A stretch of 64,000 bases of DNA from Candidatus Yanofskybacteria bacterium (GCA_016181175.1 JACOZV010000004.1:7718-71717), one strand, 5' to 3'; counted from the stretch's first letter, positions 3,236 through 58,477 are shown. Numbers and translations are program-made. Notes: generated by a model from the letters alone, not told the origin.

Positions 3236-3263
3236 TGAAAAACAAAAGCCGAGGTGTCTCGGC
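3236..3263 (-). terminator. rho-independent terminator (gccgagacacctcggc + ttttgttttt)
   Basis: Hairpin plus a U-tract about 25 nt after the stop of ORF 3289..6984. Confidence 0.65.
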
Positions 3264-3288: not shown

Positions 3289-6200
3289 TTATTTATAAAA
3301 ATTCCAGAAATTTCCAAAAATATCTAACGCTTTGTCTTTTAACCCCCCCCCCCCCGTAACTTGTATTTCCAAACTGGAATCGCTGAAATTACCGGCCAGA
3401 TCAAAAACTCTGGCAGTTATTTTATGCTTTCCCGACTCAAAAAACGGGACAAGCAACTCCAAAGCAACAGGAAAAAATATTCCATCATCAATCTTAAAAT
3501 AAACAACCGGCTGAACAATTTCCTCGAAACCCACACTGAATTTAAATCTCACAGTCTCGCCGATTTTCACCGACAAAGAACTCGCCTTTATTACTGGCGG
3601 TGCCGGCGGCGTTGAATCAATCATAATTTTGAATTGGGAAACCGGCCCGAGACGGCCATCGGTGTCTTCTGCCTGGAGACGAAAATAGTATATGCTGTCT
3701 TCATCAATGGAGATGTTAAGAAAATTGTCCGAAGTTGAAACGGCTTTGCCCGGTATAAAGTCCGGGGTTTGATTCAACGCATAGTGATAAACGCCGCCTT
3801 CAAGCAACGGCCAAGCCAGCTGAATATCTTTTTTATGATACCAGCGATTGCTGTTGGGATGGCTTGGTGAAAATATGGGTATTATTTCATTAATGCTCGC
3901 GTTGGTTAATCCTTGTCGGGTAATACTGTAAAAAGCGTCACTTGCCGCCCTAAGCACATCGGTCCCCAAGCCGTCATTGGCAAGAACTTGCGTCCCTTCG
4001 GCGAATTTAAGCGAAGCCCCGCCCACAGTTAACGGCTGCACTACAAGCTCGGCTACCGTACCGGACGGTTCGGAAAATCCGGGATTAGGAACGCCGCAAA
4101 CAATTGTTACCGTTCCCGCCGCATTATCAATATCTTTTTCCAAAAAAAGTCCGGGATCGCACAAGGAATTGGCCGTCAAAATATCAACTATTTCAAACAC
4201 GCTCGGGTCATATTTTATTACCGCGCTCACGACATTGATAATTTCTCCACCGGTAAGCACCTTTATGGCAATGTTTTTTTCAACAAATTGGTTAATGATA
4301 TCCGCTTCAGGTTCAAATTTAATCGTAGAATTATAGATAGAATACGGCGCTCTTTCTAATTTTATAGAAATGCGGTCCAGTTTGTTGTAACTGATAAAAT
4401 ACATCACGGAAAATAAAGTCAGGGTTATAATTAAAATAGTTGGAATCCGATGCCTATGATGGAAAACACTCAGGAAAAAAGATAAATATATGAAAATCGC
4501 AAGAAAAGCAAGCGCCATAAAACCGGCCAAAACAATGCTATAGAAATTGTGGCTGGTCGGAAAAAGAATAATCGTTCCGCCGGGGCTTCCCTCAATTCCC
4601 GGAAATACGATATTGCTGACAATGTAATATTCCTCGCTTATTTTAAGTTCTTTGGCAAATTTAGGAACTTGTTTGGCAATTAGGTCGGAACCAACCGAGA
4701 AAAAGCTATTCAGTATAAAAATAGTATCCTTATCCTTTAAGCTTGTGCTGATTAAACCCTCCTCTGGAGTATAAAAAATAACATGCGAACCATTCTTCAA
4801 ATACTTGTCCTGAAACCGTACGGCATAAGAATTGTTAAATAAGTTTCCCAGAACAATAGCGCCGATAACTTTGTCATCTTCTAAAATAAGGGAGTTGCTT
4901 ATTGCGGCCAGGGGATTTTTGACCCCACGGACGATTTCAGTAACCGTTTCACCTTTAGCCACCCGCCTTCCTTGGATAGTGGTTTGAAAAACATTATCTC
5001 CGCGTTGATCCGGCAAATGTGAACGAACAAGCACAAATCCGTCCTTGTCAGTTACGGCAATAAAACTAAGTTCCCTTTCTTTTGCTTCAGCTTGCACGAT
5101 GGAGAGAAGCTCCAGCGTATCGCCTGCCTTCAGGGCATCGTTAAGAACTCCTGAAGAGACAATCTCCTCTCTTTGGTCAGAAATGTATTTGAGTTCCTCG
5201 GAAAAAACAGTCTTTAGTTGAATAATTTGTTTATCAGTTGAATAAGAATACCACAAGCCCAAGAGCCAGTTAGAAAATAGCATAATGATTACAAACACCA
5301 GAATGCTTAGCAATATTTCAATCATCTCTTTTTTGTGTATCCAGTCGGTTTTGCTTTTTTTATTTAATTTCTTTTTTTTACGATATTTTTTAATTAAATA
5401 ACTCTTAACTTCATGCCCAGTAGCTAGAATCTCCTTTTTTGTCGCGACAAAAATGAGCGCAATAATCAAAATAGAGGAAACCAAAAGCCATTCATTTTTA
5501 ATAAAGTTAATGAAGCCGCCGAATATCTTTGTCAAAAAGTCAAAAATTAGTTCGGTAAAAGACCCGGATTTTACCCTAAATGATACTCGGTTAGAATCAA
5601 TAGAAATGGCACTCCTGTCATCAACCGCCTGCGCCGTCACCTCGTGGCGACCTCCTCGTTCCGGCTTAAACTCAACCTGCCAATATCCATTGGCATCGGC
5701 GTGCGTTTCCAGTATGTATTCCGGGTTGACCCTGATGGCAACCCGAACTTTTTGGTTGGGCTTGGCTTTTCCATTTATAGTAATGGTTTCGCCTATTTTA
5801 ACTTGCGGCTTTTCTATTTGATTTAAAATCACCGGCTCTATTGATTGAATCTCCATTTGATAGTCAGATTCTGAATAATTCCCTGCTTTATCAAAAGCTC
5901 TTATGATAATCTTGCGCACCCCTGGCAATTGCAAAGGCATTTTATATAATCCGGCCAACCCCGGTTCTATTTTTAACCAGTCACTCTCACCGATTTTCAT
6001 TTCATATCTATCAATACCAGATGTACCGTCTGAAGTATCAAAAGCGAGTCTGGGTTGCGGGTTGGTTAAGTCCGCCACATCCAATCTGGTTATTTTAAAA
6101 TCTGCGGGTTTTTGGGTATCAACGTTAAACTTAAACGAAGTTACGGGACCTAATCCCGCTGGTGTTTTCGCACGGGCGTTAAAATAAAATTCGCCCTCTC

Positions 6201-6984
6201 CTACATCATCCAGAACTTTTTCTGAAATCGGAGGATCATAGCTTATTATCGGCGGGGAATTGTTTCTTCGGCTCAAAACCAAAATGACCTCGCCGGTATC
6301 TACCGGCAAATCCCATTTGAAAATTGGGTTATTATTTGAATACCACTTTAACTGGTCTGGATGGGTAGACGATGTAATAATCAACTGCTCCGCTGAAACA
6401 GGAGCGGGAGTTGTGACTATTTTGGGCGTTGCTTGAGACGATGCCTGCGGCGATACCGGTGTTACCTTTGGTAATACCGATATTGCCCTTAAAACATAAG
6501 CTCCGCCCGCTAACGATGATAAAACATTCGTACCCTGCCCATCATTGGCTAAAACCGCGCCGGATGAAAAAGAAACTTGAGTAGTTGCCACCGCCTTTGC
6601 CTTGAAGTTTATAGTAAGAATATTGCCTGATGTTCCCGTATATCCAGGATTAAAAACAATGCCGCCGAAATTTATCGTTCCCAGCGCATTGGAAAAATCG
6701 GGTTCTTGCACCCAGAGACTGAAAATAGAACCAGTCCTCGTAAGAGACGTAACCGCGAGTTCAGCAGGATTAAATTTTAGTATGCCTACAGCGGCGTTAA
6801 TTGAAACACCGGCGCTATTAATCCTGATAGAAACACTAAAGTTGCTCCCATTATTATAAGTTCCCGAACCTGGAGATATAAAAAGCGTCGCGGCTCGCGC
6901 TAAAGAAAAGGGAAACAGAAACAAAAGCAAAGAAATTGCTGGAATTGCCCACTGCTTTTTAAATTTTATTTTTAACCCCTCCAA
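3289..6984 (-). CDS. giant cell-surface protein: signal peptide, cohesin-like N-terminal domain, FN3/Ig-like repeats, four central TM helices, and a second cohesin-like module
   Basis: Signal peptide MEGLKIKFKKQWAIPAISLLLFLFPFSLARA. Cohesin-like motif LFISPGSG...FSVSIRINSAGVSINAAVGILKFNPAELAV, repeated near the C-terminus (NQFVEKNIAIKVL...IKYDPSVFEIVDI). TM segments near the middle. Confidence 0.75.
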   Translation of the reverse strand: MEGLKIKFKKQWAIPAISLLLFLFPFSLARAATLFISPGSGTYNNGSNFSVSIRINSAGVSINAAVGILKFNPAELAVTSLTRTGSIFSLWVQEPDFSNALGTINFGGIVFNPGYTGTSGNILTINFKAKAVATTQVSFSSGAVLANDGQGTNVLSSLAGGAYVLRAISVLPKVTPVSPQASSQATPKIVTTPAPVSAEQLIITSSTHPDQLKWYSNNNPIFKWDLPVDTGEVILVLSRRNNSPPIISYDPPISEKVLDDVGEGEFYFNARAKTPAGLGPVTSFKFNVDTQKPADFKITRLDVADLTNPQPRLAFDTSDGTSGIDRYEMKIGESDWLKIEPGLAGLYKMPLQLPGVRKIIIRAFDKAGNYSESDYQMEIQSIEPVILNQIEKPQVKIGETITINGKAKPNQKVRVAIRVNPEYILETHADANGYWQVEFKPERGGRHEVTAQAVDDRSAISIDSNRVSFRVKSGSFTELIFDFLTKIFGGFINFIKNEWLLVSSILIIALIFVATKKEILATGHEVKSYLIKKYRKKKKLNKKSKTDWIHKKEMIEILLSILVFVIIMLFSNWLLGLWYSYSTDKQIIQLKTVFSEELKYISDQREEIVSSGVLNDALKAGDTLELLSIVQAEAKERELSFIAVTDKDGFVLVRSHLPDQRGDNVFQTTIQGRRVAKGETVTEIVRGVKNPLAAISNSLILEDDKVIGAIVLGNLFNNSYAVRFQDKYLKNGSHVIFYTPEEGLISTSLKDKDTIFILNSFFSVGSDLIAKQVPKFAKELKISEEYYIVSNIVFPGIEGSPGGTIILFPTSHNFYSIVLAGFMALAFLAIFIYLSFFLSVFHHRHRIPTILIITLTLFSVMYFISYNKLDRISIKLERAPYSIYNSTIKFEPEADIINQFVEKNIAIKVLTGGEIINVVSAVIKYDPSVFEIVDILTANSLCDPGLFLEKDIDNAAGTVTIVCGVPNPGFSEPSGTVAELVVQPLTVGGASLKFAEGTQVLANDGLGTDVLRAASDAFYSITRQGLTNASINEIIPIFSPSHPNSNRWYHKKDIQLAWPLLEGGVYHYALNQTPDFIPGKAVSTSDNFLNISIDEDSIYYFRLQAEDTDGRLGPVSQFKIMIDSTPPAPPVIKASSLSVKIGETVRFKFSVGFEEIVQPVVYFKIDDGIFFPVALELLVPFFESGKHKITARVFDLAGNFSDSSLEIQVTGGGGLKDKALDIFGNFWNFYK
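3343..3355. repeat. homopolymeric C13 (G13 on the coding strand) inside the 3' end of the giant surface-protein gene
   Basis: 13 consecutive C read directly. It encodes GGGG, 20 codons before the stop. Confidence 0.95.
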
Positions 6985-7003
6985 AGTTAAAATTGATAGC
7001 CTA

Positions 7004-7903
7004 CTATCTGAATCTTTTGTTATTTTTTATTAATTTTTTTGCTCTTCGTATTAACCGTGTTAAAAATGAAAAAAATAAAATAACCAAAAAAGTCGGCGTG
7101 CCAATTGCCAAATATGCAAATCCGTGGGGGACGAATTTCTCAATTCTTGCAAGCCCTACTTTATCCACGGCTTTTATCTCTATTATACTAAACGGATACA
7201 AATGCCGCAAAACATAAGGACTGTCTGCTTCACGCCACTGACCAAACAAACCAAGAGTTTTTTCCTTAACTTCATAGTGGCTAATGCCACTTCCCTTGTC
7301 TTGGGCTGAAAAAACGGCAACTCTGGCGCCATCAAATAAATTCTCGTTTTTGGTTATGAGTATCTCAAACTTTTCGGGCGCATAAAAATCCACAATTCGT
7401 GTTTTGATTATCTCTTGGTCGCCAGCTTCAAGAATATTAACAGCCGCTATCCCCGTGGTAACCGGCGCCTCCTGGCCTCCATCTTGGTGCAAATAAACCT
7501 TAAAATCTTCGAAAAATATCCGAGCTTCTCCTGTTTTCTTGGCCAAAAATGATAAATCAATAATTTTATCTTCCTTATCAGTGGTTGGTCCCTCTCCTCC
7601 GGGTATAATACCTGAAAATTTAATTGTATCTTTTCCGATTAAGGCTGGCCTATCAACCCATAAATTTATCAGCGAATTGGCATCAGAAAAATCTTTATAT
7701 TCAAGCAGGTTTGGGTCAAATTTGATTTTACTTTCTATGGCATTTATAAATTCTTCCGGATTTATCAGAACCTTAACTGAAAAAATCTGACCGGCCTCAA
7801 TTTCGCCCGGGATAGAAAAATATAATTTGGCCGCCGAGGCAAAATTAGAGAATAGTAAGTAGAAAGTAGAAAGTAGTAAAAAAATTAAATATTTTTTAAA
7901 CAT
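7004..7903 (-). CDS. secreted/anchored protein with cohesin-like N-terminal domain and C-terminal TM anchor
   Basis: Signal peptide, then AAKLYFSIPGEIEAGQIFSVKVLINPEE...IKFDPNLLEY (same module as in 3289..6984), and a C-terminal hydrophobic segment followed by basic residues. Confidence 0.7.
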   Translation of the reverse strand: MFKKYLIFLLLSTFYLLFSNFASAAKLYFSIPGEIEAGQIFSVKVLINPEEFINAIESKIKFDPNLLEYKDFSDANSLINLWVDRPALIGKDTIKFSGIIPGGEGPTTDKEDKIIDLSFLAKKTGEARIFFEDFKVYLHQDGGQEAPVTTGIAAVNILEAGDQEIIKTRIVDFYAPEKFEILITKNENLFDGARVAVFSAQDKGSGISHYEVKEKTLGLFGQWREADSPYVLRHLYPFSIIEIKAVDKVGLARIEKFVPHGFAYLAIGTPTFLVILFFSFLTRLIRRAKKLIKNNKRFR

Positions 7904-7930
7904 TTTTGTTCAGAAGTAATCTATCTGACT

Positions 7931-9730
7931 CTATCCGGACCAATGGAATGCTAATATGCTAAAGTCGGCTAAGTTCAAAAGTCCGTCACAGTTCAAGTCA
8001 ACATTAGAACCTTCGGGAACTGTTCTTTTCCACCAGTAAGCCATAATAGAAAAGTCTATTAGATTAATTTTTCCGTCACTATTAATATCGGCGTCGCGGG
8101 AACATTCTTTTTGCGGAACCGCAACGCCGATTCCAAAAGTCACCAGCTGGGAAAAAATGGATTCATCACCGGTTTTTAAAACTTCGGTTTTGGTTTTAAC
8201 AGTATGAATACCCTTCTCCAGACCGATAGTAGAAAAAACCTGTGAATAATCTCCGTTCAACAACGATTTGGTAATATAATCTTTTGGTTCTGATACGACG
8301 CTCACTCTGACTTGGGAATCGGGCACGGAAGACCCGCTAACGGTCAATTGCTCTCCTAGGTTAACGGAGGTTTTATTTAAACTGATTGTCGGCGGCAAAA
8401 CAATATTGGACACTTTTGCGATAGAACCGCTTGTCAAAATTTCCCGCTTAGTAAAGGTTACCGAACGCCGGCCGGTTTTGTCTTGCGCCCAAAATCCAAA
8501 GTTATAACCACCCGCTGATAACCCCGATAAAATAAAGCTGAATTTGCCGCTACTGTCAGCCGTAGTCGCACCGGCATTAGATCCGTCTTTCAAAAAATTA
8601 ATAACTGCCGACGGGTAAGCAAAACCCCCAAACTCCACAGCCGCTGTTGCAAGTATAGACCCGCCGCCGCCACCTCCGCCTCCGCCACTCGAAGCCGGTG
8701 TGGGCGTCGGTGTAGCCGCCGTGGTTCCAAAAATGGCAAATGAACTAAAATTAGCAGTAGAAAAAGTAATTGTTTTATTGGTTGTATTAATTGTCGCTCC
8801 GCTAACCAGTTGCCATGAGGAGTCGCTGGATCCCCAACGATAAGGCGCAAGGGAGCTTTCTGTAATACCGCTTACATCCGAACTGGAATAACTAAGAGTA
8901 ATGGTAGCCGGAATAGAAATGGCGCTTATCTGGTCTCCGGTACTTGGATGAAAAATGTTAAAGTCGTATGTTTTGCCGACAAAGTTTTTTTGGGAAGGCG
9001 CCGGTTTGCTGGAAGCAAAATAACTATTTGGAAAAGAATTTGCGACGAGTTGAACCGTCTGTGTGTAGAAGTTCTGAGGAAAATCAAGAACAGCGGTCGT
9101 ACCGCCGCTGTTGGTTAAAGTAAGAGCATTTCTGGTGGCCACATTAAAAGTAGAGGCATTGGCCGCTTCTGCTATGCTACTTGAGACGGGAGTAACACTT
9201 TTTTCATTAGAGGTAGCGACAACATTGCCCACCCCGTCTTTTGTTTCAATTTTAAAAGTATAATCGGAGTTATTAGTTAAACTTGATTTTTGATAGAAAA
9301 TAACATTCCCTACGTTTTGGCACGAATAAGTTCCGCCTGAAGTTAATTTTGTGCAAACATTATATCCACCAACAGAAAAACCCTGGGATGCCGAAGCCGG
9401 TGTCCAAGAAAGAAAAGCTTCGGCATTCCCCTTTAAAGCAGTATGCAATATTGGAGCTGTTACTTTCGGAAAATACAAAAACCCACTTCTCAAACCAAAG
9501 TTAGTAATTGAAGAACTGCCGATGGCTAAGTCGCCGACCGTTGCTCTCAAAATAAAACTTGACGAGCTTGACGAAGCTGTACCGCCGAAAATCGAATGTT
9601 GTGAGTCCAAAATCCTAAAATTATCGGAAGATAAACTCGCGCCAATAGAAATTTCGGCCGAGACAAAATCAGGGATTAGAAATACCAAAAACAATATTAT
9701 TAACACCAATAAACCCTTGTAATGGCTCAC
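7931..9730 (-). CDS. secreted repeat protein with C-terminal dockerin-like module
   Basis: Signal peptide. A Ser/Gly-rich repeat region. The C-terminus DINSDGKINLIDFSIMAYWW...DLNCDGLLNLADFSILAFHW is a duplicated dockerin-type Ca-binding repeat. Confidence 0.7.
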   Translation of the reverse strand: MSHYKGLLVLIILFLVFLIPDFVSAEISIGASLSSDNFRILDSQHSIFGGTASSSSSSFILRATVGDLAIGSSSITNFGLRSGFLYFPKVTAPILHTALKGNAEAFLSWTPASASQGFSVGGYNVCTKLTSGGTYSCQNVGNVIFYQKSSLTNNSDYTFKIETKDGVGNVVATSNEKSVTPVSSSIAEAANASTFNVATRNALTLTNSGGTTAVLDFPQNFYTQTVQLVANSFPNSYFASSKPAPSQKNFVGKTYDFNIFHPSTGDQISAISIPATITLSYSSSDVSGITESSLAPYRWGSSDSSWQLVSGATINTTNKTITFSTANFSSFAIFGTTAATPTPTPASSGGGGGGGGGSILATAAVEFGGFAYPSAVINFLKDGSNAGATTADSSGKFSFILSGLSAGGYNFGFWAQDKTGRRSVTFTKREILTSGSIAKVSNIVLPPTISLNKTSVNLGEQLTVSGSSVPDSQVRVSVVSEPKDYITKSLLNGDYSQVFSTIGLEKGIHTVKTKTEVLKTGDESIFSQLVTFGIGVAVPQKECSRDADINSDGKINLIDFSIMAYWWKRTVPEGSNVDLNCDGLLNLADFSILAFHWSG

Positions 9731-9790: not shown

Positions 9791-10237
9791 TTACTTATTT
9801 CCTATGCTTATAGGGGCTACTTCTACAATTTTATTGTTATCCGGGTCATAGAGGATGGCTTTTTTAGCATTGGCATACAGCAAAAGCTTGTCGCCCTTTT
9901 TTGCTTTCACGAAGAATTGCTGGTCTTTTAATTTTTCCGGATCTGAAACAGTGGCAACAGTCGGCGTTTCTCCTTCGGGCAATATGATAAGTTTGGAAAT
10001 TTGAGCAACCAACTTGGCTGTTTCTTCCCTGACGATCTTGTTTGGATCTTCTTTTAGCACGGCTGCTTCATTGTAAAAATAAAACGCTAAACCGCTTGTC
10101 GTAAGCGCAAGAAAAACCAAAATGGGAATCAAATGTTTTTTACGCTTGGGTGGTGTTTGAACGGCTAAATCTGTACCTAAGCCTTCGTTATTCATTTCTT
10201 CCTCTACTACAACTTCATTATTTATATGTTTACTCAT
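9791..10237 (-). CDS. hypothetical membrane-anchored protein
   Basis: A charged N-terminus, one TM helix (LIPILVFLALTTSGLAFYFY), then a soluble domain. Confidence 0.55.
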   Translation of the reverse strand: MSKHINNEVVVEEEMNNEGLGTDLAVQTPPKRKKHLIPILVFLALTTSGLAFYFYNEAAVLKEDPNKIVREETAKLVAQISKLIILPEGETPTVATVSDPEKLKDQQFFVKAKKGDKLLLYANAKKAILYDPDNNKIVEVAPISIGNK

Positions 10238-10296: not shown

Positions 10297-12393
10297 TTAC
10301 TGATTCGTTTTAGGATTTAGATAGCCCTGAAGCTGGTTTAAATAGTTTGTGGTGTCATAGCGGTCCGGATCAAGATATAAAGATTTTTGAAACGAGTCTT
10401 CCGCTTTTTCAAACTGACCAGTCCTGAAATAAGCTAGACCAAGCCACATATAACTCTCTGGGGTTTTCTCGCCCATATCAATCGCGTTCTCCAGAAAAAT
10501 AATCGCCGAAATTAAACTCTGGGGATCATTCTTCCACACTTTAATAGAACCCATATACAACCAAACCCAGCTGTTTTTAGGATATTCGGCCACTACTTTT
10601 TTCAAGACAGAAGTGGACAAATTTTCACTGCCCATTAAATAAATAAACCGGCCGGCAATAATTCTATCTAACACATCATCGGACGTCAGCATGTGGTTAA
10701 TTCTCTCGTTGAGATTTCCAGGAGTACTAAATTTATTAATAACTTCACTGTTCTGAGGAATGTTTCTCAAAAGAATTACTGCATAAGAATCAATATAAAC
10801 TAATGACCATAATGGATCGCGCAAGCGCCTCAATAAAAAACTTCCCACAACCGGACTTCCGTCCCGCAAACTTATAAATATCGCGTTCAGGTTATATTTA
10901 TCCCGCGCTTCAATCCATTTTTCTTCACTTGATAGCGCCGGTATGAAAACATCATCAAAAAAAGAAACAGGATAAGAATCGGCTCCATTGTTGTCAACAA
11001 AAACACGCTCTTTAGGAAATAAGTGATAAATAATATAACCTCCGATATCATAATCATTAAAAATAGGACCTTTTAAGTTATTATTCTTGAAAAATTCTCC
11101 GGCATCATTTGAGTGGCGACCTAATCCAATGCCCCAGTCATTCTTATATCCCCGCGAAGCCGCATCCGCATTCAAATCATAAGCCTTATAAGGATAAACA
11201 GCAGAGATAATGACAACTAAACTATACCCTAACACGACTGCCAATTTTGGCCTTTTTTGCCTTAACCAATTTTTTATCGCAAGAAAAACACCATTAAAAT
11301 TAGACGAAACCGCGGGTAAAAATATAAACGCAAAAAGAGTAATTAATCTAATTTGGTTAAGTCCCGCGACGGCGCTAGCAAGTCCGGCCAATAAAAAGAA
11401 TATCGGTTTGTTTTTGTAGCGAAAACCAAAAATGGAACTAAAAAGAAAAATAAATACCATGGGCGCAAATGGCGAATTGAAAATATCCCACGAAAAAATA
11501 CTGGCTTTCAAATTAAAAAATGGCTGGTTTTCGCTTACCGAAAATGAGGCATAGTGAAATTTAATTTTAAGCGGAGCAAGCGCTCCTTCTAAGCCGTTGG
11601 GGTTGATAAATATTACAGCGAACAGTATAAACAGGACCGAAAGTAATTTTTTAACCACCGGATCATTTCGCAAATTTTTTAAATTTATTCTCCAATCCGC
11701 CAGCCGCCCGAATTGGCGGAGGCGGATTTTGGGCATATATAAAACAACTTTCTCAAACAAAAATCCGGCAACCAGAACGATGCCGAGAAAAAAGAAAAGA
11801 TGAAAATTAACCCACAAAAGCTGAAGCGGAATAAGCCAAAAAATCCTTTTTCTTTCCGGATGTTTTTCCAGGTCAAACAGCAAATAAAGAAACAGGGCGA
11901 GAAAAAGATAACTGAACATTTCCGGCCGTATTCTGTTGCGGCCCGCCAAGATCAAAATAGTCGGCAAAGAAAAAACCGCCACCAACCAAAAGTTAGCTTT
12001 TTTCATTGCTGCAATAAAAAGAATAGCGAAAGCGGAAAGAAGAATCGCGGTTTTTAAAATAGTCAATGCCCCAAAGCCGAAGATTTCGGACACGAGATAA
12101 AAAACAACGCTACTCATCCAGTGATGGTCGTATACAGGATGGTCCGGCACCGTAAAAGAATAGATGTTATTTCTAAATACATTTTGAGTTTCCCAAATCG
12201 TTTTGCCGTCCATAATATACAGACCGGTGTCGTTATCCATGTGCGGCAAACTTATCTTAATAAGCAAAAAAGAGGCATAAAAAGCCAGAATGATAATAAA
12301 AATCAGAATTTTCTTATAATCGGCGGGAATCAAATTCTTCATAAAACATTTTAGAGATAGCGCCAATGACATTGGAAAGTTTTTCAATGTCAT
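10297..12393 (-). CDS. polytopic membrane protein, GT-C-type glycosyltransferase-like, with C-terminal TPR repeats
   Basis: More than 10 predicted TM helices. The C-terminal TPR region includes YMWLGLAYFRTGQFEKAEDSFQKSLYLDPD. The start is uncertain (internal Mets at 12372 and 12342). Confidence 0.5.
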   Translation of the reverse strand: MTLKNFPMSLALSLKCFMKNLIPADYKKILIFIIILAFYASFLLIKISLPHMDNDTGLYIMDGKTIWETQNVFRNNIYSFTVPDHPVYDHHWMSSVVFYLVSEIFGFGALTILKTAILLSAFAILFIAAMKKANFWLVAVFSLPTILILAGRNRIRPEMFSYLFLALFLYLLFDLEKHPERKRIFWLIPLQLLWVNFHLFFFLGIVLVAGFLFEKVVLYMPKIRLRQFGRLADWRINLKNLRNDPVVKKLLSVLFILFAVIFINPNGLEGALAPLKIKFHYASFSVSENQPFFNLKASIFSWDIFNSPFAPMVFIFLFSSIFGFRYKNKPIFFLLAGLASAVAGLNQIRLITLFAFIFLPAVSSNFNGVFLAIKNWLRQKRPKLAVVLGYSLVVIISAVYPYKAYDLNADAASRGYKNDWGIGLGRHSNDAGEFFKNNNLKGPIFNDYDIGGYIIYHLFPKERVFVDNNGADSYPVSFFDDVFIPALSSEEKWIEARDKYNLNAIFISLRDGSPVVGSFLLRRLRDPLWSLVYIDSYAVILLRNIPQNSEVINKFSTPGNLNERINHMLTSDDVLDRIIAGRFIYLMGSENLSTSVLKKVVAEYPKNSWVWLYMGSIKVWKNDPQSLISAIIFLENAIDMGEKTPESYMWLGLAYFRTGQFEKAEDSFQKSLYLDPDRYDTTNYLNQLQGYLNPKTNQ

Positions 12394-13303
12394 GACCGCG
12401 CGTCATTACGCAAAGAAGGTACGGATTTTTAGGGTAATATACGATACCGCAATCATGGAGTTGTTTTATGCCACCCTCAAACCCGGTTCGCTCCCCGAAT
12501 TTATGCGCTACCGAAATTTCGGGGGGAACCCCAGCTACAATACCAATATTAAAATCTGTATTTGCCAGAAATTCTAATGTCTTTTCTGAAGTTTCTTTAT
12601 TCCTAAAAAATGATGCGTGGTAAAGCTGAATAAATATTGAGGAGTATGATTTTACGCTTATTACTTCGTCACGCTCTCCTCTTGGACTGACAATGCCCAA
12701 ATCTTGAATCGTTTCAGTAAAAACATCTGTATTTGGATAGGCCTGAATTAAATATTTAGTCAAAACAATGTATGCCTTATTGTCAGAATATTTAATCAGA
12801 CGCTTAAGCAAATCGTTTACAGAATAAGATTCATTTTCTTGAATTGATTCTTTTGGAGAAATTAATTGCTCAAAAATCACTTCTTTTGTCGTATGGTATG
12901 TTAATTTTTTTTCGAGCAACTCTGGTTTGTCCTCGGCAAAATTTAAATAGGTTATAAGCAGGGGCACCTTAAGTAAGCTGGCCGGGGCAAAAACGGCATG
13001 GTCATCAATACCCAGTGTCGGACCGCTCACAAGGTCTCTAAAATAAATGGACACATTAGTAATTTCTTTCTCTTTTATTTTAGAATCAATGAATTCTTCA
13101 ATCCTGCTCTTTAAGTCAGCATAAGCATGTTTTTTTATAACAAAAGAGTTATCGCAAGCCAGTTCTTTATTAATAAATTTAAACCTAGATTGATTACAAA
13201 AAAGATTAATATCAATAATATTAAATTTGTTTGCCAAAAATCCTCCTCCAAAAAGAATGAAAATAATAAGAAGGGTATTTGAAAACCTAAACCCAAAAAG
13301 CAT
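12314..13303 (-). CDS. class A beta-lactamase-like serine hydrolase (PBP fold)
   Basis: SxxK (PASLLKVP), SDN (YSDNKAY) and a degenerate KTG-like box (HKFGERTG), after an N-terminal TM/signal segment. Confidence 0.55.
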   Translation of the reverse strand: MLFGFRFSNTLLIIFILFGGGFLANKFNIIDINLFCNQSRFKFINKELACDNSFVIKKHAYADLKSRIEEFIDSKIKEKEITNVSIYFRDLVSGPTLGIDDHAVFAPASLLKVPLLITYLNFAEDKPELLEKKLTYHTTKEVIFEQLISPKESIQENESYSVNDLLKRLIKYSDNKAYIVLTKYLIQAYPNTDVFTETIQDLGIVSPRGERDEVISVKSYSSIFIQLYHASFFRNKETSEKTLEFLANTDFNIGIVAGVPPEISVAHKFGERTGFEGGIKQLHDCGIVYYPKNPYLLCVMTRGHDIEKLSNVIGAISKMFYEEFDSRRL

Positions 13304-13339: not shown

Positions 13340-15337
13340 TTAAGTGTCCGGTGAAGTTTCCGAAAGCGGAGATTCTTCTGACGGAGGCGGCTCTGGCGTT
13401 GCTTGCGGTAAGCTTGTTGAATCCGGTTCAGGAGTTGGCTCTTCCACTGGAGGTTGAACCTCTACTTGAGGTTCAACCTCGGCGGATGGCGTAGGTTCCG
13501 GAGGTGGCGATTCTTCTATTATTGGCTCCGCCGTGGACTCTTCGGATACGGATGGTTCTGATTCTGAAGTCGGTTCTATGCTCGACTCCGGAGTTGCCAA
13601 AGATTCGTAATCTTTTGAAGGAATTGGCGTCGGTTCTGGCTGTGAATTATTGAGGATACTCGGAATAACCGAACACTCACCCGGTATGTGAACCAGTTGT
13701 CCCCTTGTCATTCTTACGCAATACGGCTCCCCTGTTTCGGTATCATAAAACGTAATGCCGTTTGGCCGGTCTCGACTCCCTATGGTTAGCGAGTCGGCTT
13801 TAAGCGCCCCTGAGAAAAACGCATTACCTAAACTGTCAAAGGTAATTACCGGCGGACCAGTGCCTCGCCCCAAGCTTGAAGGACCAAATGAAGTAGAGAA
13901 TGAATCTGAAGCAACATTGAAAATACTAAATACGCCGCCATTGGCCAATTTAAACCCGACATCATCATCCACCGGCTCAATGATGTTCACGACCAGCGTA
14001 TCAGTTAAGACCCGCGGTGAAATAATTTCCAATCCGGCTATTATTCTATCAGTATATATTTCCGACAAAGATGTGCTGGCTGTTATTTCCTGCTTGTGAC
14101 TTAACATCTGGGCCAGTACCAGGCGCCCGATATCAATATCTTCTGGTATCTCATCCATATTGACCCCATATTTGCCAAGAACCGACTTTGTCCTGGCTCC
14201 GGTAGAATATGTTGTGGAAATGAACATTAAGATTTTACCTTGGTCTTCAGGAAAACCATCAGATTGGCTAGCAACACTGACGTCAAAATCTTCCAATGCC
14301 GAACCAATTATTAATCCCGCTTTATCAGTCCTTACTGCGACACCCGGAACATCGGATGCGGTAAGCAAATCGCCTTTTTTAATTTCACCATTTGCAGTTG
14401 AAACCTTAACAAGCGCCGTTCCCGACAAAGCTACGGGTTGGGTATCCGACGGCCTTTGGTCGTTCAGGTCTTTATTCATTATTTGAAATGGATCAGTAGA
14501 GATAACCCCAACTACACGGTCTTCAGGGGTTGCTTTTTTAAGAACTGCTGTTTTCTGGAGACCTTGTTTTGAGTCATATGAGGTGTCATTGGGGCCTACA
14601 GCCACCACATCACCGGGCTCTACACCATCTTCAACCACGAAATATTCTGCCAAGTCGGAACCATTGGTACCCGAAAGAGCCCAGACGATAACTGCACCGG
14701 CTGCTCCGGCGGCACCTTTTCCAAGGTTTGCAGAACCACCGCCTCCAGCGCCACCTGGAGCTGCTCCGATTGTTCCATTGCCATTATGAGCTGAGCCAGC
14801 CCCCGAACCCCCGCCGCCACCCGCACCACCCATCGGACTTCCTCCACCATCGCCGCCACCGGCGCCGGCAACTGCGGCAAAACCTGAACCGCCATTGCTT
14901 CCGCTTAGATTTAAGGTACCGCCAATTGCACTCCCCCCCACACCACCAACACCATTGGCAAGTCCTAATCCCCCGCCATTACCTTGAATATTAGCCCCAC
15001 CATTAAGTGCGCCTGTAAATCTGCTTAAATTTCCAACAACTCCGACGGTGCCACCGGTACCAACAACGATAGACACATTTCCGTTGACAGCCGTTATTCC
15101 CGCACTATACCCACCACCACCACCACCACCACCACCGTTTATCGCCGCAGCATTATTTCCACCAGCACCGCCGCCCCATACTTCCACATAAACCTGATTA
15201 ACATACGCCTGTTTAACCCAATTGCCATTAGCAGTGAAGGCGTTTATAGCTTCAATACCAAATCCCGCATCACCGCTACCAGCAGAGGTATCATCATCAC
15301 CACACGAAAATTTTCCTGTTGTTATATCCCAACCCAA
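13340..15337 (-). CDS. glycine-rich tail-fibre-like protein, C-terminal segment (frame C), with Pro/Glu/Ser-rich tail
   Basis: ORF call; the 'start' is a TTG artefact. This frame stays open upstream to about 15495 (PDPGFNFDSSLYIFDISKGLHALAALTSVGSASFNGG...). It contains long GGxGG tracts. Confidence 0.55.
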   Translation of the reverse strand: MGWDITTGKFSCGDDDTSAGSGDAGFGIEAINAFTANGNWVKQAYVNQVYVEVWGGGAGGNNAAAINGGGGGGGGGYSAGITAVNGNVSIVVGTGGTVGVVGNLSRFTGALNGGANIQGNGGGLGLANGVGGVGGSAIGGTLNLSGSNGGSGFAAVAGAGGGDGGGSPMGGAGGGGGSGAGSAHNGNGTIGAAPGGAGGGGSANLGKGAAGAAGAVIVWALSGTNGSDLAEYFVVEDGVEPGDVVAVGPNDTSYDSKQGLQKTAVLKKATPEDRVVGVISTDPFQIMNKDLNDQRPSDTQPVALSGTALVKVSTANGEIKKGDLLTASDVPGVAVRTDKAGLIIGSALEDFDVSVASQSDGFPEDQGKILMFISTTYSTGARTKSVLGKYGVNMDEIPEDIDIGRLVLAQMLSHKQEITASTSLSEIYTDRIIAGLEIISPRVLTDTLVVNIIEPVDDDVGFKLANGGVFSIFNVASDSFSTSFGPSSLGRGTGPPVITFDSLGNAFFSGALKADSLTIGSRDRPNGITFYDTETGEPYCVRMTRGQLVHIPGECSVIPSILNNSQPEPTPIPSKDYESLATPESSIEPTSESEPSVSEESTAEPIIEESPPPEPTPSAEVEPQVEVQPPVEEPTPEPDSTSLPQATPEPPPSEESPLSETSPDT

Positions 15338-15363
15338 TGTTTGGGTATCACCATCGCAATCAA

Positions 15364-16131
15364 CTAACCCCGAACCTCTGACTCCCCCGTTAAAGGAAGC
15401 TGAACCGACTGAAGTAAGGGCGGCCAGAGCGTGAAGTCCTTTGGATATGTCGAAAATGTAAAGGCTTGAGTCAAAGTTGAATCCAGGGTCAGGTCATCGC
15501 CGGTCAAGGTGAGATCGGTGCCGGCGGTAAGATTGGTGTGATTTGATATGTCTATGCCTTGGGAAGCTATGGTTAGGGTTGGAAAGGCGGTGAAAGTTAA
15601 GGCTCCGCCCAGACCGGCTAATACAGTGGCGCCGGCTGAATCATCCCACATGAAGAATCTGTCGGCGTTGGGGTCGGTAAGAGTGGCTCCAGTGCCGCCG
15701 TCGGCTAAAGAAACATCTGTGCCGCCGACTGTGTAGACGTTGGATCCGCCTATTGTAAGGGCGGAAACGCTGGCGGTTTTTATCTCAAGAGTATTACTGA
15801 ATTGATTGGAAGCGTTACTGAATGTCCAGCTTCCGGTGATAGTTTCATTGGCGGCACGACTTGCAGGACCGGTAGTCCAGTCTAATGTGATGGTGCCGTT
15901 GGAAGCGGTATTGCTGAAATTGAACATGTTAGCATCGAATTGTAAGGAAGCGATGGCGAAATATGTGCCGGCGGTTACGGCGATGTCTAAGCCGTCGGAA
16001 ACGTTGCCGCCTGAACCGCCGCCGGTATTCGGCGGAAGGCCAGGTATATGTAACGCCATTGAATGTGGTGGCGCCGGATATTGAGGCCGTACCGCCAACT
16101 TCAAAAGCGGTATTGGTAAGAGCACCCGCAT
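15364..16131 (-). CDS. tail-fibre-like protein, middle segment (frame B)
   Basis: Contains VSLADGGTGATLTDPNADRFF, which resembles the phage tail-fibre GGTGAT box. It overlaps frame A by about 200 nt. Confidence 0.5.
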   Translation of the reverse strand: MRVLLPIPLLKLAVRPQYPAPPHSMALHIPGLPPNTGGGSGGNVSDGLDIAVTAGTYFAIASLQFDANMFNFSNTASNGTITLDWTTGPASRAANETITGSWTFSNASNQFSNTLEIKTASVSALTIGGSNVYTVGGTDVSLADGGTGATLTDPNADRFFMWDDSAGATVLAGLGGALTFTAFPTLTIASQGIDISNHTNLTAGTDLTLTGDDLTLDSTLTQAFTFSTYPKDFTLWPPLLQSVQLPLTGESEVRG

Positions 16132-16834
16132 TAATACCCAGTTTTGAAAGTGTTGATGTTAACTCTAAACTTCCGGAAATTGAAGCGCTACTTCCAAAAC
16201 TCACAAATCCGTCAAATGAAACTGAACCGTCCACCTCAAGACCACCGGAGATTAGAAGATCGTTAGCGGAATAAATTGCATCGGAATGAGTCGTTGTCGC
16301 TGTCCCGAATCTTGAGTATGAAGCCGTAGTTAGTCCGCCGAACTGACCAACACCAGTCGCGTTCAAAAATCTCCCCCCGTGAACCGTCTCGGCGTTAACC
16401 GCAAATCCGGAAGCAACGATCCTTTGCCTGGGTGACAATGTTTCAAAGTCAACATTGTCATCAGACACCTGAACTTCCAAATAATAGGTCTGAGAATCAA
16501 AATCCAAATTTAACGCGCTATAACTGGCAGACGTATCACCAAGTAAAGTATTAAAAACACCTTGAGTAACTTTTATCGTTATCGCAGTTCCACCGGATGA
16601 CCACAACTCATTATCACCCGTTGCCGTAGAATGGATTTCGAACTTGAAATAAAAGTTAGTTCCGTTTCCGCCAAGAAGATTTCCAGAAGCATCAGCCAGC
16701 CGTCCTTGAAAACTTAAAATTTGAGGAACAGCAGCCGAAGAATGCCACGCAAAAAAAGTAAACGAAAAAACCGCAGTAATCAAAAACAGCGTGAAAAATC
16801 TTTTTAAAATTAAAATTTTCCCTCCTTGTTTCAC
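15929..16834 (-). CDS. tail-fibre-like surface protein, N-terminal segment (frame A) with signal peptide
   Basis: Signal peptide, then PQILSFQGRLADASGNLLGGNGTNFYFKFEIH...LWSS. The ORF ends in an Arg-rich out-of-frame tail (YRRRFRRQRFRRLRHRR), which marks a frameshift near 16035-16050. Confidence 0.55.
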   Translation of the reverse strand: MKQGGKILILKRFFTLFLITAVFSFTFFAWHSSAAVPQILSFQGRLADASGNLLGGNGTNFYFKFEIHSTATGDNELWSSGGTAITIKVTQGVFNTLLGDTSASYSALNLDFDSQTYYLEVQVSDDNVDFETLSPRQRIVASGFAVNAETVHGGRFLNATGVGQFGGLTTASYSRFGTATTTHSDAIYSANDLLISGGLEVDGSVSFDGFVSFGSSASISGSLELTSTLSKLGINAGALTNTAFEVGGTASISGATTFNGVTYTWPSAEYRRRFRRQRFRRLRHRRNRRHIFRHRFLTIRC

Positions 16835-17007
16835 TTATTAGAGAATAAATATATATTCCAATGAATTATATTTTCTCTAGTAATAATTTTAACATTAAAA
16901 CAAGCTTCCTGCTCGACTTTTATCCACAAGTTATTTTATGACATGAACGAAGACATTTTATAAGAATCCGGTTGCTTTATAAAATAAATTGTGATAATCT
17001 AATAATG

Positions 17008-17256
17008 ATGAAACCAGACATTCACCCACAATATTTTGACGCCACAGTCCACTGCGCCTGCGGAAATAAATGGAAAACCGGCTCAACAATGCCGGAGATT
17101 AGCGTGGAAATTTGCAGTCAATGCCATCCTTTCTATACGGGCAAAGAAAAAATGCTTGATACGCGAGGACGAGTTGATAGGTTCAAAAAAAGAATGGGAA
17201 AATCGGATGTTGCAATCAAAAGCAAAACCGTTAAAAAACCTCGCATCAAAAAATAG
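17008..17256 (+). CDS. rpmE: 50S ribosomal protein L31
   Basis: [27 protein letters not shown]...[10 protein letters not shown] carries the CxxC...CxxC zinc ribbon of L31. The called ORF starts at a TTG at 16972. Confidence 0.85.
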
Positions 17257-17277
17257 CTTGCCACCTGGCTCTCCTCA

Positions 17278-18168
17278 ATGCCAACAGCTGAAGAACTCAA
17301 AAAAGAACTTGATCAAATTCAAAAACAACTCGCTGATCCCGAGTTTGTTTTAGATTACAAGCGAGTAGCTGAAGCATCTAAGAGATATGCCGAGATTGAA
17401 CGATTGCTTTCCGGCGGCCAGTCAACTAACTCCGGGCAGGGCCGACAAGAAACTATTATTGAAATACGCGCCGGTACCGGTGGCGAGGAAGCGGCCTTGT
17501 TTTCTTCCAGACTTTTTGAAATGTACAAAAAATATGCCGAAACACAGGGTTGGCAAACAAGCGTCCTGGATTACAGTCAAACAACGCTTGGCGGTTATAA
17601 AAACATGGTCTTTGAACTGTCAGGAAAGGAGGTTTATAATAAAATGCGGTATGAGTCAGGCGTTCATAGAGTTCAACGAATTCCCGAAACCGAAAAAAGC
17701 GGACGCGTTCACACTTCAACAGCCACAGTGGCCGTACTCCCCAAAGCAAAGGAAACAGACTTGGAAATTAAACCTGAAGACCTTGAAATATCATTTTACC
17801 GCGCCGGCGGACCGGGAGGGCAAAATGTAAATAAAGTTTCAACCGCAGTAAGATTACTTCACAAACCATCCGGTTTAGTCGTCAGCTCGCAAAAGGAACG
17901 CTCCCAAGCGCGCAACAAGGAAAGCGCGCTGGAAGTCCTGCGATCCAAATTGTTGGATATCAAAAAACGCGAAGAAGTCGGAGCCGTTACCGAGGAACGC
18001 CGCAAACAGATTGGCTCTGCTGAACGCGCCGAAAAAATACGCACTTATAATTTCCCCCAAGACCGCATTACAGATCATCGCATCAAGAAAAGCTGGGGAA
18101 ACATAAGCAAAATACTGGACGGCAATCTTGATGTAATAGTTAATGCGTTGCTGAATATTAAAAATTAA
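17278..18168 (+). CDS. prfA: peptide chain release factor 1
   Basis: GGQ motif ([19 protein letters not shown]), an RF1-type PxT region ([22 protein letters not shown]), and the position after rpmE. Confidence 0.85.
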
Positions 18169-18294
18169 AAATAAAAGACTGGTTAATTTTATAATTTTTA
18201 ATTTTATAATTTTGTAAATAATTTCTAATGTTTAAAAATTAAAAACATTAAGATTTATTTAAAAATTAAAAATTGGAAATTAAAAATTACAAAA

Positions 18295-18852
18295 ATGCAA
18301 TTAGACCATCGTGCTTTATTTTTAAAATCTGGCACAAGCGGGTTAAATGCGCCGGGCGGTAAATCATCTGGGCCGGTTTTTGAGTTTGGCCCCGGTTGGG
18401 GAAGCAAAATAAAAAAGTGGTTTAAAAAATATATTCTCGGCGGTCACTGCACGCTCTGTCGGGCAACGCGTTATGTTCTTCTTTTTGGTCTGGTACTTCT
18501 GGTATTTGGCGGACCACAATTGAAGTCGCTGCTGGACAGCAAAAAACAGCAAGCCCTAATAAGTGAAACGAGAATAACCGAAACGGCTCAATCCGGCGAC
18601 AGTAAAATCAAAATGGCCCGCCGCGCCCTTACGGGTTATCTTAACAAATTCACCGACACGACCGTTACAAACGGCCAGAGAGTTTTCATTGAAACAGTAT
18701 TGAGCCAAACAATAACTGACGAATTGAAACCTGGCGCTCAAATAGATTTTGATTTTAAAAGCGTTGAGACCCTTATAGAGCAGTCACGCTTACTCACTCC
18801 TTCCCAGCTCCAAAAATGGGAGGACTACGCCAAAAAGGTGAAGTTTTATTAA
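18295..18852 (+). CDS. hypothetical membrane-anchored protein
   Basis: A single TM helix (YVLLFGLVLLVFGG) followed by a soluble domain. Confidence 0.5.
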   Translation: MQLDHRALFLKSGTSGLNAPGGKSSGPVFEFGPGWGSKIKKWFKKYILGGHCTLCRATRYVLLFGLVLLVFGGPQLKSLLDSKKQQALISETRITETAQSGDSKIKMARRALTGYLNKFTDTTVTNGQRVFIETVLSQTITDELKPGAQIDFDFKSVETLIEQSRLLTPSQLQKWEDYAKKVKFY

Positions 18853-18856
18853 ATCA

Positions 18857-18882
18857 AAACCCGCCTTATGGCGGGTTTTGAT
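18857..18882. terminator. bidirectional terminator aaaacccgcc-ttat-ggcgggtttt
   Basis: Perfect stem with flanking A/T runs between convergent genes. Confidence 0.7.
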
Positions 18883-19568
18883 TACTCTTTTTTCTCTGAC
18901 GACACCGGTGCTTCTTCCGCAACTTCCTCTTCGGGTTTTTCTTTCTTAATAACCTCAACCTCCTCCGGCGCGGTCGTAACCGGTGTCTCAAGTTGAGCCT
19001 TGAGTTCTTCTTCGGAAATCGGTTCCTGTACCAAAGCCACTATAACTTCGGGTTCAACCTTCACCTCAAGTTTTTTTGAGATTGATAAATCTTTTACCAA
19101 AATTTGGCTTTTAAATTCCGCGAGTACAGAGATATCTACATCGATCTGGTGGGGCAAATCTTGCGGAAAACCCTCAACTTCTATTTCAGACAGGTTTTTC
19201 ACTAAAATTCCGCCCAAGCCCTTAACCGCTGGGGATTCACCTATAAAATTAAGCTGAATTTTTGCATGTATTTTTTCATCCAAACGCACTTTATAAAAAT
19301 CTGCGTGCAAAAAAATATCATTTAACGGGTCACGAACAACATCGTGAATAATAGTAGGATGATCCTGTCCATCAACATTGAGATAAATTACAGTGGATTC
19401 ACCGGCTTCAGTATAAACCCGCTCAAATTCATTAACTGGCACCTGAATTGATAGTGGCTTAAAACCGTGACCATAAACTACGGCCGGCACAAAACCGCGT
19501 CGTCTAAGCGACTTCACCTGCCTGCCAATAATACTTCTCGGTTCCGCTTGTAGTATAACTCTTTCCAT
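18882..19568 (-). CDS. rplY: 50S ribosomal protein L25 / general stress protein Ctc
   Basis: MERVILQAEPRSIIGRQVKSLRRRGFVPAVVYGHG...FLHADFYKV is the L25 N-domain. It is followed by a C-terminal acidic extension. Confidence 0.85.
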   Translation of the reverse strand: MERVILQAEPRSIIGRQVKSLRRRGFVPAVVYGHGFKPLSIQVPVNEFERVYTEAGESTVIYLNVDGQDHPTIIHDVVRDPLNDIFLHADFYKVRLDEKIHAKIQLNFIGESPAVKGLGGILVKNLSEIEVEGFPQDLPHQIDVDISVLAEFKSQILVKDLSISKKLEVKVEPEVIVALVQEPISEEELKAQLETPVTTAPEEVEVIKKEKPEEEVAEEAPVSSEKKE

Positions 19569-52869: not shown

Positions 52870-52875
52870 AATCTT

Positions 52876-54405: not shown

Positions 54406-54407
54406 AG

Positions 54408-56663: not shown

Positions 56664-56676
56664 TCTTGAGCTTGAT

Positions 56677-58476: not shown

Positions 58477-58477
58477 A

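Follow-up and report, generated by a model that had tools for sequence, protein, structure and literature searches.

A candidate cohesin–dockerin surface-tethering operon without cellulosome context in Candidatus Yanofskybacteria

Little is known about how Patescibacteria construct their surface and cling to host cells, and the majority of their envelope proteins have no annotation beyond ‘hypothetical’. The question takes a concrete form in a stretch of 64,000 nucleotides of Candidatus Yanofskybacteria DNA (GCA_016181175.1, JACOZV010000004.1:7718–71717), referred to here in its whole 64 kb length as the window, where three neighbouring genes, called C, B and A, encode cohesin-like and dockerin-like modules. 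What are such modules doing in this organism, and do they act on each other? Outside cellulosomes, both kinds of module are known from many bacteria and archaea. The reading favoured here, with a probability of roughly 60% on the strength of sequence comparison and structure prediction, is that the genes form a single operon for a non-cellulosomal cohesin–dockerin module that would tether a secreted protein to the cell surface.

A preliminary description of the window had placed three consecutive surface-protein genes at 3289–9730, and the open reading frame (ORF) calls agree with it. On the minus strand, which also carries all the other window features with coordinates below, C, B and A follow one another head to tail, with intergenic gaps of 27 nt between C and B and 19 nt between B and A. 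C (7931..9730, 599 amino acids, GTG start) is predicted to be a secreted stalk protein with a C-terminal dockerin and without a membrane anchor, B (7004..7903, 299 amino acids) a membrane-anchored protein with a single cohesin, and A (3289..6984, 1231 amino acids) a composite of an anchor of the type called A' (residues 1 to ~540) and a protein of the type called D (~541–1231). The database records identical to the three proteins, HYT61_03385, HYT61_03380 and HYT61_03375, are ‘hypothetical proteins’ of a Candidatus Yanofskybacteria metagenome-assembled genome (MAG).

Cohesin and dockerin modules of the three proteins

C ends in a dockerin (7934..8095) that is recognised by Pfam, a motif scan, profile comparison and the structural model, and that consists of two 22-residue F-hand repeats, DINSDGKINLIDFSIMAYWWKR and DLNCDGLLNLADFSILAFHWSG. 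The repeats, DINSDGKINLID and DLNCDGLLNLAD, are the sole motif pair of this kind in the six frames of the window. The Ca2+ ligand positions 1, 3, 5, 9 and 12 are filled in both (D-I-N-S-D-G-K-I-N-L-I-D and D-L-N-C-D-G-L-L-N-L-A-D) and are invariant or nearly so across 20 homologues, and the AlphaFold2 model places a helix behind each repeat (residues 543–551 and 573–581). A precomputed match to Dockerin_1 (PF00404) exists for 36 of 53 C homologues. When a profile of the last 68 residues of the family was compared with the PDB, type I dockerins came out on top, with 4FL4_A at 1.4e-6 followed by 2Y3N_B, 1DAQ and 5NRM_B (to 6.7e-5). The ligands in both repeats and these profile matches bear out the duplicated dockerin repeat that the preliminary description had read at the end of this gene. 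At recognition positions 10 and 11 the repeats have Leu-Ile and Leu-Ala, where the type I dockerins of Clostridium thermocellum have Ser-Thr. In the consensus the two repeats are near-identical, a feature that recalls dockerins with a dual binding mode.

The remainder of C has the build of a stalk. Because the GTG at 9730 is taken as the start, the protein carries a complete signal peptide (residues 1–25, 9656..9730), found by a hydropathy scan, with cleavage after VSA and an A–E(I/V)S junction conserved in homologues; the NCBI start, which gives 585 amino acids, lies 14 codons later, inside the signal peptide. The same scan finds no transmembrane (TM) helix. Behind the signal peptide comes a Ser-rich triple motif (residues 26–88, 9467..9655; SSDNFRIL...SGFLYFP) with a mean column identity of 72% and a predicted local distance difference test (pLDDT) score below 50, and then an FN3 domain (about residues 94–180, 9191..9451), which is seen in the strands of the AlphaFold2 model, is matched by PF00041 in homologues and returns FN3 arrays from Foldseek. 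A further beta-sandwich (about residues 189–335, 8726..9166), evident from the alignment and the model, is inserted in a subset of the homologues only. A Pro/Thr linker with a run of nine Gly (8651..8725, pLDDT below 50) would act as a near-invariant flexible hinge; G337–G342 are conserved in at least 90% of the 53 homologues. It leads into two immunoglobulin-like (Ig-like) domains of the Big_6 kind (8129..8644), supported by a weak Pfam Big_6 match, the model and conservation between loci. These two domains and the dockerin, with the likewise conserved Gly run, form the conserved core of the family. The head varies by lineage, being the Ser-rich motif, FN3 and beta-sandwich here, and a small Cys-rich module or larger domains elsewhere. 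The AlphaFold2 model (mean pLDDT 82.9) has the same order, that is a disordered N-terminal 72 residues, FN3, a second beta-sandwich, the disordered Gly run, two Ig-like domains and two terminal helices, and Foldseek matched it to generic FN3 arrays, with no enzyme among the matches.

B is a smaller protein, with a signal peptide and a single C-terminal TM helix in the hydropathy scan. Its cohesin (residues 25–160, 7424..7831) is supported by Pfam, the AlphaFold2 model and Foldseek, and is followed by an Ig-like spacer of the OmpL47 type (7130..7381; a weak match to NCBIfam NF047446 and the model) and by the TM anchor (7058..7126; hydropathy scan and model), behind which lies a basic cytoplasmic tail. 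The Pfam Cohesin model (PF00963) gives 24.3 bits, narrowly over its gathering threshold of 24.1. The AlphaFold model, built from 57 homologues, has a mean pLDDT of 93.9, and the best match that Foldseek finds for it in the PDB is 2W1N, the cohesin–FN3 double module of Clostridium perfringens GH84C (E = 2.9e-11). Nearly all of the top 50 matches are cohesins, with template modelling scores, TM(target), of 0.7–0.79 (6KGC_A 0.79, 2XDH 0.78).

The conservation of B falls on one side of this fold. If the nine strands of the model match the canonical cohesin numbering, the residues conserved in at least 85% of the sequences lie mostly in strands 3, 5, 6 and 8, including the FSGIIPGG motif, and the mean conservation of the sheet formed by these strands is 0.61 vs 0.46 for the other sheet (p = 0.012). 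In established cohesin structures the 8-3-6-5 sheet is the dockerin-binding face. A precomputed PF00963 match exists for only 2 of 68 B homologues; since most B-type cohesins thus escape Pfam annotation, the use of cohesins and dockerins in Patescibacteria is undercounted.

The preliminary description had assigned the same cohesin-like module to A and B. That assignment stands, with PF00963 scoring 38.7 bits over two stretches of A (gathering threshold 24.1), but it had overlooked one further cohesin. The N-terminal ectodomain of A (residues 17–379) is homologous to its C-terminal ectodomain (872–1209; 25% identity, BLASTP E = 3e-22), and the region therefore holds three cohesin modules. Cohesin 1 of A spans residues 34–170 (6475..6885; best Pfam stretch 42–150) and is matched by the B-family hidden Markov model (HMM) at 2.5e-28. 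Cohesin 2, the overlooked one, spans residues 885–1030 (3895..4332), contains the second Pfam stretch and is matched by the same HMM at 1.2e-9.

Between and around the two cohesins, A is a long chain of domains. Cohesin 1 is followed by spacers (5569..6402), namely a module X with the motif THPDxxxWY, an OmpL47-type barrel (314–372; NF047446 42.6 bits vs a cutoff of 40) and a Big_13 domain (402–460; Pfam 34.7 bits vs a gathering threshold of 27). The hydropathy scan gives a signal peptide and four TM helices. TM1 (497–515, 5440..5496) is the anchor helix of the A' part and is followed by a 41-residue Lys-rich cytoplasmic loop, and TM2 (557–575, 5260..5316) is the first helix of the D part. An extracytoplasmic dCache_3-like domain (576–815, 4540..5259) separates it from TM3 (816–834), a short HHRHR cytoplasmic turn and TM4 (847–865), which together occupy 4390..4539. 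Cohesin 2 comes next, and then a second X module with an Ig-like domain (1040–1210, 3355..3867), whose free C-terminal end is placed outside the cell. By the positive-inside rule, applied to the Lys-rich loop and the HHRHR turn, all three large domains of A face outward. The domain between TM2 and TM3 scores 18.9 bits on dCache_3 (PF14827) vs a gathering threshold of 25.7, over profile positions 15–229 of 239; it has no similarity to a neighbouring dCache_1 protein of a related locus (L008), and a plain sequence search of the PDB returned nothing useful.

Four internal TM helices had been remarked upon as an unusual topology. The number is confirmed, but the arrangement is not an unexplained oddity, as it comes from the joining of A' and D. 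The whole architecture of A occurs in one other protein of the searched collection (P0002, 81% identity, from an independent assembly), and all other A homologues span only residues ~17–557; A'-type proteins usually end in one TM helix and a coiled cytoplasmic tail. An exhaustive search with residues 570–820 returned 278 representatives at E <= 0.001, mostly of ~675 amino acids, which make up family D. Among the matches listed, the D proteins align over their full length to A ~540–1231 at 35–50% identity with three TM helices at matching places, and their parts run in the order TM helix, Cache-like ectodomain, two TM helices, cohesin, X module and Ig domain. The Pfam matches among 40 members were dCache_3 in 29 (E < 0.01, best 6.4e-11), Cohesin in 16 and PKD in 10, and a D-family profile found no informative match in the PDB. 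A related metagenome contig, L092, has an A'-type gene right beside a separate D gene, whose product is 49% identical to the C-terminal part of A. Since A' and D are separate neighbours there, gene A is seen as a fusion of the two, and on these alignments its four-helix topology is the outcome of the fusion of two protein families. D joins the other genes in about 9 of 45 D loci, where its place varies: it may separate the dockerin gene from B, separate B from A', or follow A'. In the other D loci it is found elsewhere. This recurrent linkage and the fusion argue that D works with them.

A conserved triad and its neighbours

The order of the three genes is not peculiar to this genome. The B-family alignment was run on one genome per species and gave 257 confirmed stretches, from which 80 loci were kept; genes were counted with HMMs built from homologues, and the denominators of these locus counts are assessable loci. 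Nearly all of the kept loci are titled as Patescibacteria (Yanofsky-, Wolfe-, Komeili-, Magasanik-, Falkow-, Lipton-, Doudna-, Nomura-, Uhr-, Brenner-, Veblen-, Jorgensenbacteria and others), and about a dozen record titles name taxa outside the candidate phyla radiation (CPR). A dockerin-bearing ORF lies directly 5' of B in 64 of 67 loci; of the three exceptions, two have an extra A-type gene inserted. Directly 3' of B, 65 of 68 loci have an A'-type gene. The neighbourhoods of six distant homologues all read dockerin gene, B, A', and further metagenome loci that hold a triad have the identical order. Such a conserved gene order argues strongly that the modules work together.

One contig provides a second copy of part of the arrangement. 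On the contig of L007, at 16475–19251 of the locus L045 and ~7 kb downstream of the first triad, a dockerin-bearing ORF is again followed by a B-type ORF, which suggests that the dockerin–cohesin pair duplicates as a unit; an overlapping gene call on that contig has faint MG2 and Dockerin_1 matches. Among the metagenomic A' and B homologues (P0004–P0009, P0101, P0105, P0115, P0120 and P0133), several have a four-helix-bundle (PF05635/PF22296) or PDDEXK_3 (PF13366) domain before the signal peptide. These N-terminal extensions may be read-through gene calls over small selfish genes inserted just upstream.

In a number of lineages the triad stands next to genes of the Pam pilus system, which was described in 2026 in Ca. 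Mycosynbacter amalyticus (bioRxiv 10.64898/2026.03.03.709456). According to that description each Pam pilin combines a sandwich of nine strands with a donor strand and a truncated Ig domain. The chaperones, PamC and PamD, are anchored in the membrane and consist of two beta-barrel domains followed by a C-terminal TM helix. The tip subunit is PamT, and PamR, in which an N-terminal strand precedes two FnIII domains and a TM helix at the C-terminus, serves as terminator and anchor; a tail-fibre-like gene lies near the pam operons, and cohesin and dockerin are absent from the account (10.64898/2026.03.03.709456). The Pam_pilin_C model (NF058581, cutoff 55) is matched by all 11 of the aligned pilins from triad loci (best E = 1.1e-36). 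Three scored singly give 67.6, 73.6 and 84.7 bits, the first two being the genes 5' of the triad in L008. With an iterated pilin HMM, pilin genes are found directly 5' of the triad in 15 of 49 loci. A gene termed X, encoding 310–360 amino acids, lies between the pilins and C and is present upstream in 27 of 49. Its product has a signal peptide, a mature N-terminus reading ALTISPxKxE..GDPG and a C-terminal TM helix. PF06030 (WxLIP_PGBD, DUF916) is matched by 4 of 12 X proteins, and an X-family profile found no informative match in the PDB. X is a candidate counterpart of PamC/D.

At 3305–6880 of L008 and in ~20 other loci the pilins occur as Pam-type pairs with two kinds of N-domain, one starting ASLLNKSDTMSS and one Cys-rich with a repeated TNAHAE. 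Both types end in ...TEAGSYxATLTYVATANF and are followed by the WxLIP/DUF916-like gene X, which points to CPR Pam pili being akin to the WxL surface clusters of Firmicutes.

C itself has a local resemblance to the tip subunit. Scanned alone, its N-terminal motif matches NF058579 (CPR_pilus_PamT) with E = 2.2e-6 and 27 bits over profile positions 23–77. The equivalog cutoff is 240 bits, so that C falls below PamT membership and the match is a local one. The motif is unfolded in the monomer model, which would be compatible with strand complementation (donor-strand exchange).

Weighing the explanations

Several observations count against a tethering module with ties to pili. The preliminary description had proposed domain HMMs as a check, and the outcome was divided, with Cohesin above its gathering threshold for A and B and Dockerin_1 at 22.6 bits on C, 0.3 bits short of its threshold of 22.9. 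Against this near-miss stand the Ca2+ ligands, the conservation and PF00404 matches of the homologues and the profile matches in the PDB. The window holds three cohesins against one dockerin. In a mirror-tree and partial correlation analysis of 69 non-redundant triads the values were 0.08–0.15, not above those for the Ig domains, and neither cohesin was singled out. The PamT match of C is short, lies in a Ser-rich region and went unreported in the scan of the whole protein. Finally, an HMM of verified Pam pilins finds no pilin in the 64 kb window, nor is there an X gene in it, and the link to pili hence rests on analogy with other lineages.

The failure of the mirror-tree analysis to single out a partner also suits the alternative that survives best, although we consider it unlikely, in which the modules are real but unpaired. 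The cohesins would then be spacers or would bind other ligands, such as glycans or a host surface, and the dockerin would be a Ca2+-binding module that touches the wall or a cohesin encoded elsewhere. To our knowledge, many non-cellulosomal cohesins and dockerins have no known partner. A dockerin-domain envelope protein that is essential for the epibiotic growth of a Saccharibacterium, SEML1_0315 of Southlakia (927 amino acids), is a stand-alone gene with no cohesin neighbour in the tables of the paper; it was considered as a counterpart of this operon and rejected on that ground (PMC10633639). Such independence is hard to square with the near-universal adjacency of one dockerin gene and two cohesin genes and with the recurrence of the dockerin gene and B-type ORF a second time in one genome. 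The dockerin and the cohesin are also the most constrained modules (mean p-distance 0.39 for the dockerin, the least divergent of all, 0.45 for the A' cohesin and 0.61 for the B cohesin), and the conserved sheet of B is the canonical binding sheet.

The proximity to pilin genes raises the next alternative, also improbable and ranked below the last, in which B and A' are pilus-assembly or anchor proteins of a Pam-like system, comparable to PamC/PamD or PamR, whose cohesin-like sandwich handles pilin strands, and in which the dockerin of C has another partner or role. It draws on the many loci where the triad is directly 3' of Pam pilins and of the TM-anchored WxLIP-like gene, on the two beta-sandwich domains and C-terminal TM helix of B, which are the general build of PamC/D and PamR (10.64898/2026.03.03.709456), and on the resemblance of the N-motif of C to PamT. 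However, the model of B matches cohesins, and PapD/FimC chaperones are missing from its top 50 Foldseek matches. That B might itself be a Pam pilin, or have the N-domain of one, was rejected, as hhalign gives a probability of just 27% against the pilin profile, and none of the Pam models matches B or A. Those operons already contain a separate chaperone-like gene in X, and the triad persists without pilins or X upstream, both in the window and in other assessable loci.

A minimal cellulosome-like scaffold for polysaccharide degradation is suggested by the names of the cohesin and dockerin domains only and is very improbable: C is composed of FN3 and Ig domains with neither a catalytic domain nor a carbohydrate-binding module (CBM), there is one dockerin in 64 kb, and each cohesin stands singly on a TM-anchored protein, with no tandem cohesins, no surface-layer homology (SLH) or sortase signals and, by Pfam, no CBM. 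The lack of cellulosome context in the preliminary description therefore holds good for this Candidatus Yanofskybacteria MAG, in which the triad is attached to no enzyme or CBM and is thus not a cellulosome; with the dockerin not on a carbohydrate-active enzyme and no tandem-cohesin/CBM scaffoldin with SLH or sortase, one is ruled out at this locus, barring dockerin-bearing enzymes of that kind encoded elsewhere in the genome that bind these cohesins.

The least probable explanation is a phage-derived or mobile tail-fibre-like cassette, which would accord with the match of an upstream 665-residue Gly-rich protein to phrog_863 and of the ORF 15929–16834 to an adhesive-fibre N-domain of Bdellovibrio, but PHROGs lend no support to a phage origin of A, B and C (no match for B and C, one weak match to a family of unknown function for A), the flanks are housekeeping genes, the GC content is even over the region and the chromosomal context of the triad differs between lineages.

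Turning to the surroundings of the operon, the housekeeping flanks comprise rpsB, a short tsf, tRNAs, a release factor, L25 and Tgt. A terminator-like hairpin (3248..3263, GCCGAG..CTCGGC and a T run; a consensus match only) lies ~25 nt past the stop codon of A. On the other side, 60 nt ahead of C, gene S (9791..10237, 148 amino acids) encodes a protein predicted to have its N-terminus in the cytoplasm and, beyond a single TM helix, a small conserved domain outside; Pfam and NCBIfam scans gave no match for it. S homologues lie directly 5' of the dockerin gene in L001–L006 and L009, and S is present in 7 of 54 loci; it is a lineage-specific accessory gene. Next, between the operon and the fibre-like genes, 10297–13303 encodes a 698-residue multi-TM protein with a TPR at its C-terminal end, together with a protein resembling class-A beta-lactamases (PF13354, 98 bits). 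The Beta-lactamase2 gene occurs again near the triad in L007, L008 and L009, and an HMM finds it in 5 of 41 loci.

Further upstream, 13340–16834 holds three ORFs with no Pfam match. The 665-residue Gly-rich protein, whose phrog_863 match is to a tail fibre, has a Pro/Thr/Glu-rich tail and is 28% identical to part of a 1841-residue protein upstream of the triad in L009. The match of the ORF 15929–16834 is to NF053851, the N-domain of the Bdellovibrio mosaic adhesive trimer, and it overlaps the ORF 15364–16131 by ~200 nt, so that the gene may be split or frameshifted; that the ORFs of 13340–16834 are one broken gene could not be shown. Elsewhere in the window, the elongation factor Ts ORF (1825–2274) encodes 149 amino acids, about half the usual bacterial length, and a 95-residue ORF amid tRNA genes (513–800) resembles a small GIY-YIG nuclease in its sequence (YFYVLKS...GQLYFGYT); another gene of the GIY-YIG kind lies 3' of A' in L008. 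A type I restriction–modification system (HsdS, HsdM, HsdR) followed by a GmrSD-type endonuclease gene occupies 50568–58638, and a LOOT RNA (Rfam RF03000, 71.1 bits vs a gathering threshold of 46.4) at 59144–59260 overlaps the 5' end of the ORF 58748–59188 and reaches upstream of it.

Proposed mechanism and comparison with known systems

By its sequence C is a Sec-exported rod, in which FN3/Ig domains are followed by a poly-Gly hinge, then by two Ig domains and finally by a dockerin of the Ca2+ type. B and A are exported but kept in the cytoplasmic membrane by their TM helices, with the three cohesins displayed outside; judged by the signal peptides and the positive-inside loops, the cohesins and the dockerin all lie on the outer side of the membrane. 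In the proposed mechanism the Ca2+-loaded dockerin of C would plug into at least one of the B and A cohesins at its 8-3-6-5 face, and C, which has no anchor of its own, would thereby be tethered at the cell surface. The head of C, which varies by lineage, would face away from the cell; here it would consist of the PamT-like Ser-rich motif and the FN3 domain. A is the product of a recent fusion between A', the usual long anchor, and D, which would bring a Cache-like ligand-binding ectodomain beside a membrane-proximal cohesin. As the anchors differ in length, B being short, A' long and D membrane-proximal, several geometries are possible.

Cohesins and dockerins at work outside the cellulosome have a precedent in Archaeoglobus fulgidus, whose cohesin and dockerin do bind each other and have served as a tool for surface display (PMC9705933; PMC12484212). 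The B model superposes on the cohesin of that system (2XDH) with the score of 0.78 given above. Unlike the archaeal pair, the cohesins here are TM-anchored, the genes form a fixed three-gene operon and one cohesin protein has a Cache-like domain. The glycoside-hydrolase cohesins of C. perfringens (GH84C, 2W1N; 2JH2; 2VO8) are likewise non-cellulosomal, and in 2W1N the cohesin is followed by an FN3/Ig domain as in B; those cohesins are appended to secreted enzymes, whereas here there is no enzyme and the cohesin proteins are membrane anchors. With the anchoring scaffoldins of Acetivibrio/Clostridium thermocellum the operon shares the type I kind of dockerin and the logic of an anchored cohesin that holds a dockerin-bearing protein. 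In contrast to cellulosome scaffoldins, TM helices replace SLH or sortase anchoring, the cohesins are single and the cargo is a non-catalytic FN3/Ig stalk.

The Pam pilus is similarly CPR-specific and combines Sec-exported Ig-type proteins with membrane-anchored helpers, and in related genomes the triad comes directly after Pam-type pilins. C is built like PamR, with an N-terminal strand region, FN3 and an anchor, and shares the local N-motif with PamT, but its anchor is a dockerin, not a TM helix, and the window is without a pilin or chaperone-like gene. The likeness to the WxL/WxLIP (DUF916) clusters of Firmicutes, in that X matches PF06030 and ends in a TM helix, concerns neighbour genes in other lineages and none of A, B and C. 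Literature searches that paired cohesin or dockerin with CPR, Patescibacteria, Parcubacteria or Saccharibacteria turned up no account of this operon, and none was found of the Cache–cohesin family D or of a linkage of the triad to pam-type genes.

Since the triad is conserved in the fetched loci and is often directly 3' of Pam-type pilin and chaperone-like genes, the module is most likely part of an adhesion or pilus surface apparatus of epibiont-type bacteria and not an enzyme scaffold. The likeness in build between C and PamR invites the hypothesis, by analogy, that C might be a PamR-like adaptor in which the TM anchor has been swapped for a dockerin. A bolder proposal, which is doubtful, would make the triad the membrane attachment device of Patescibacteria filaments and adhesins: in Paceibacteria-type lineages it would replace the TM anchor of PamR and fix Pam-type pili or exchangeable adhesive heads by a Ca2+-dependent plug and socket, and D would couple docking to an external ligand. 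If this were true, it would be the first cohesin–dockerin system with a core cell-biological role beyond polysaccharide degradation and would offer a handle on the attachment of CPR bacteria to their hosts. The operon provides a concrete candidate set of interacting proteins, one dockerin and three cohesins, whose order is kept in dozens of fetched genomes. If the binding is real, it would supply new orthogonal binding pairs for protein engineering, and the roles of cohesins and dockerins would widen from enzyme scaffolding to general surface architecture.

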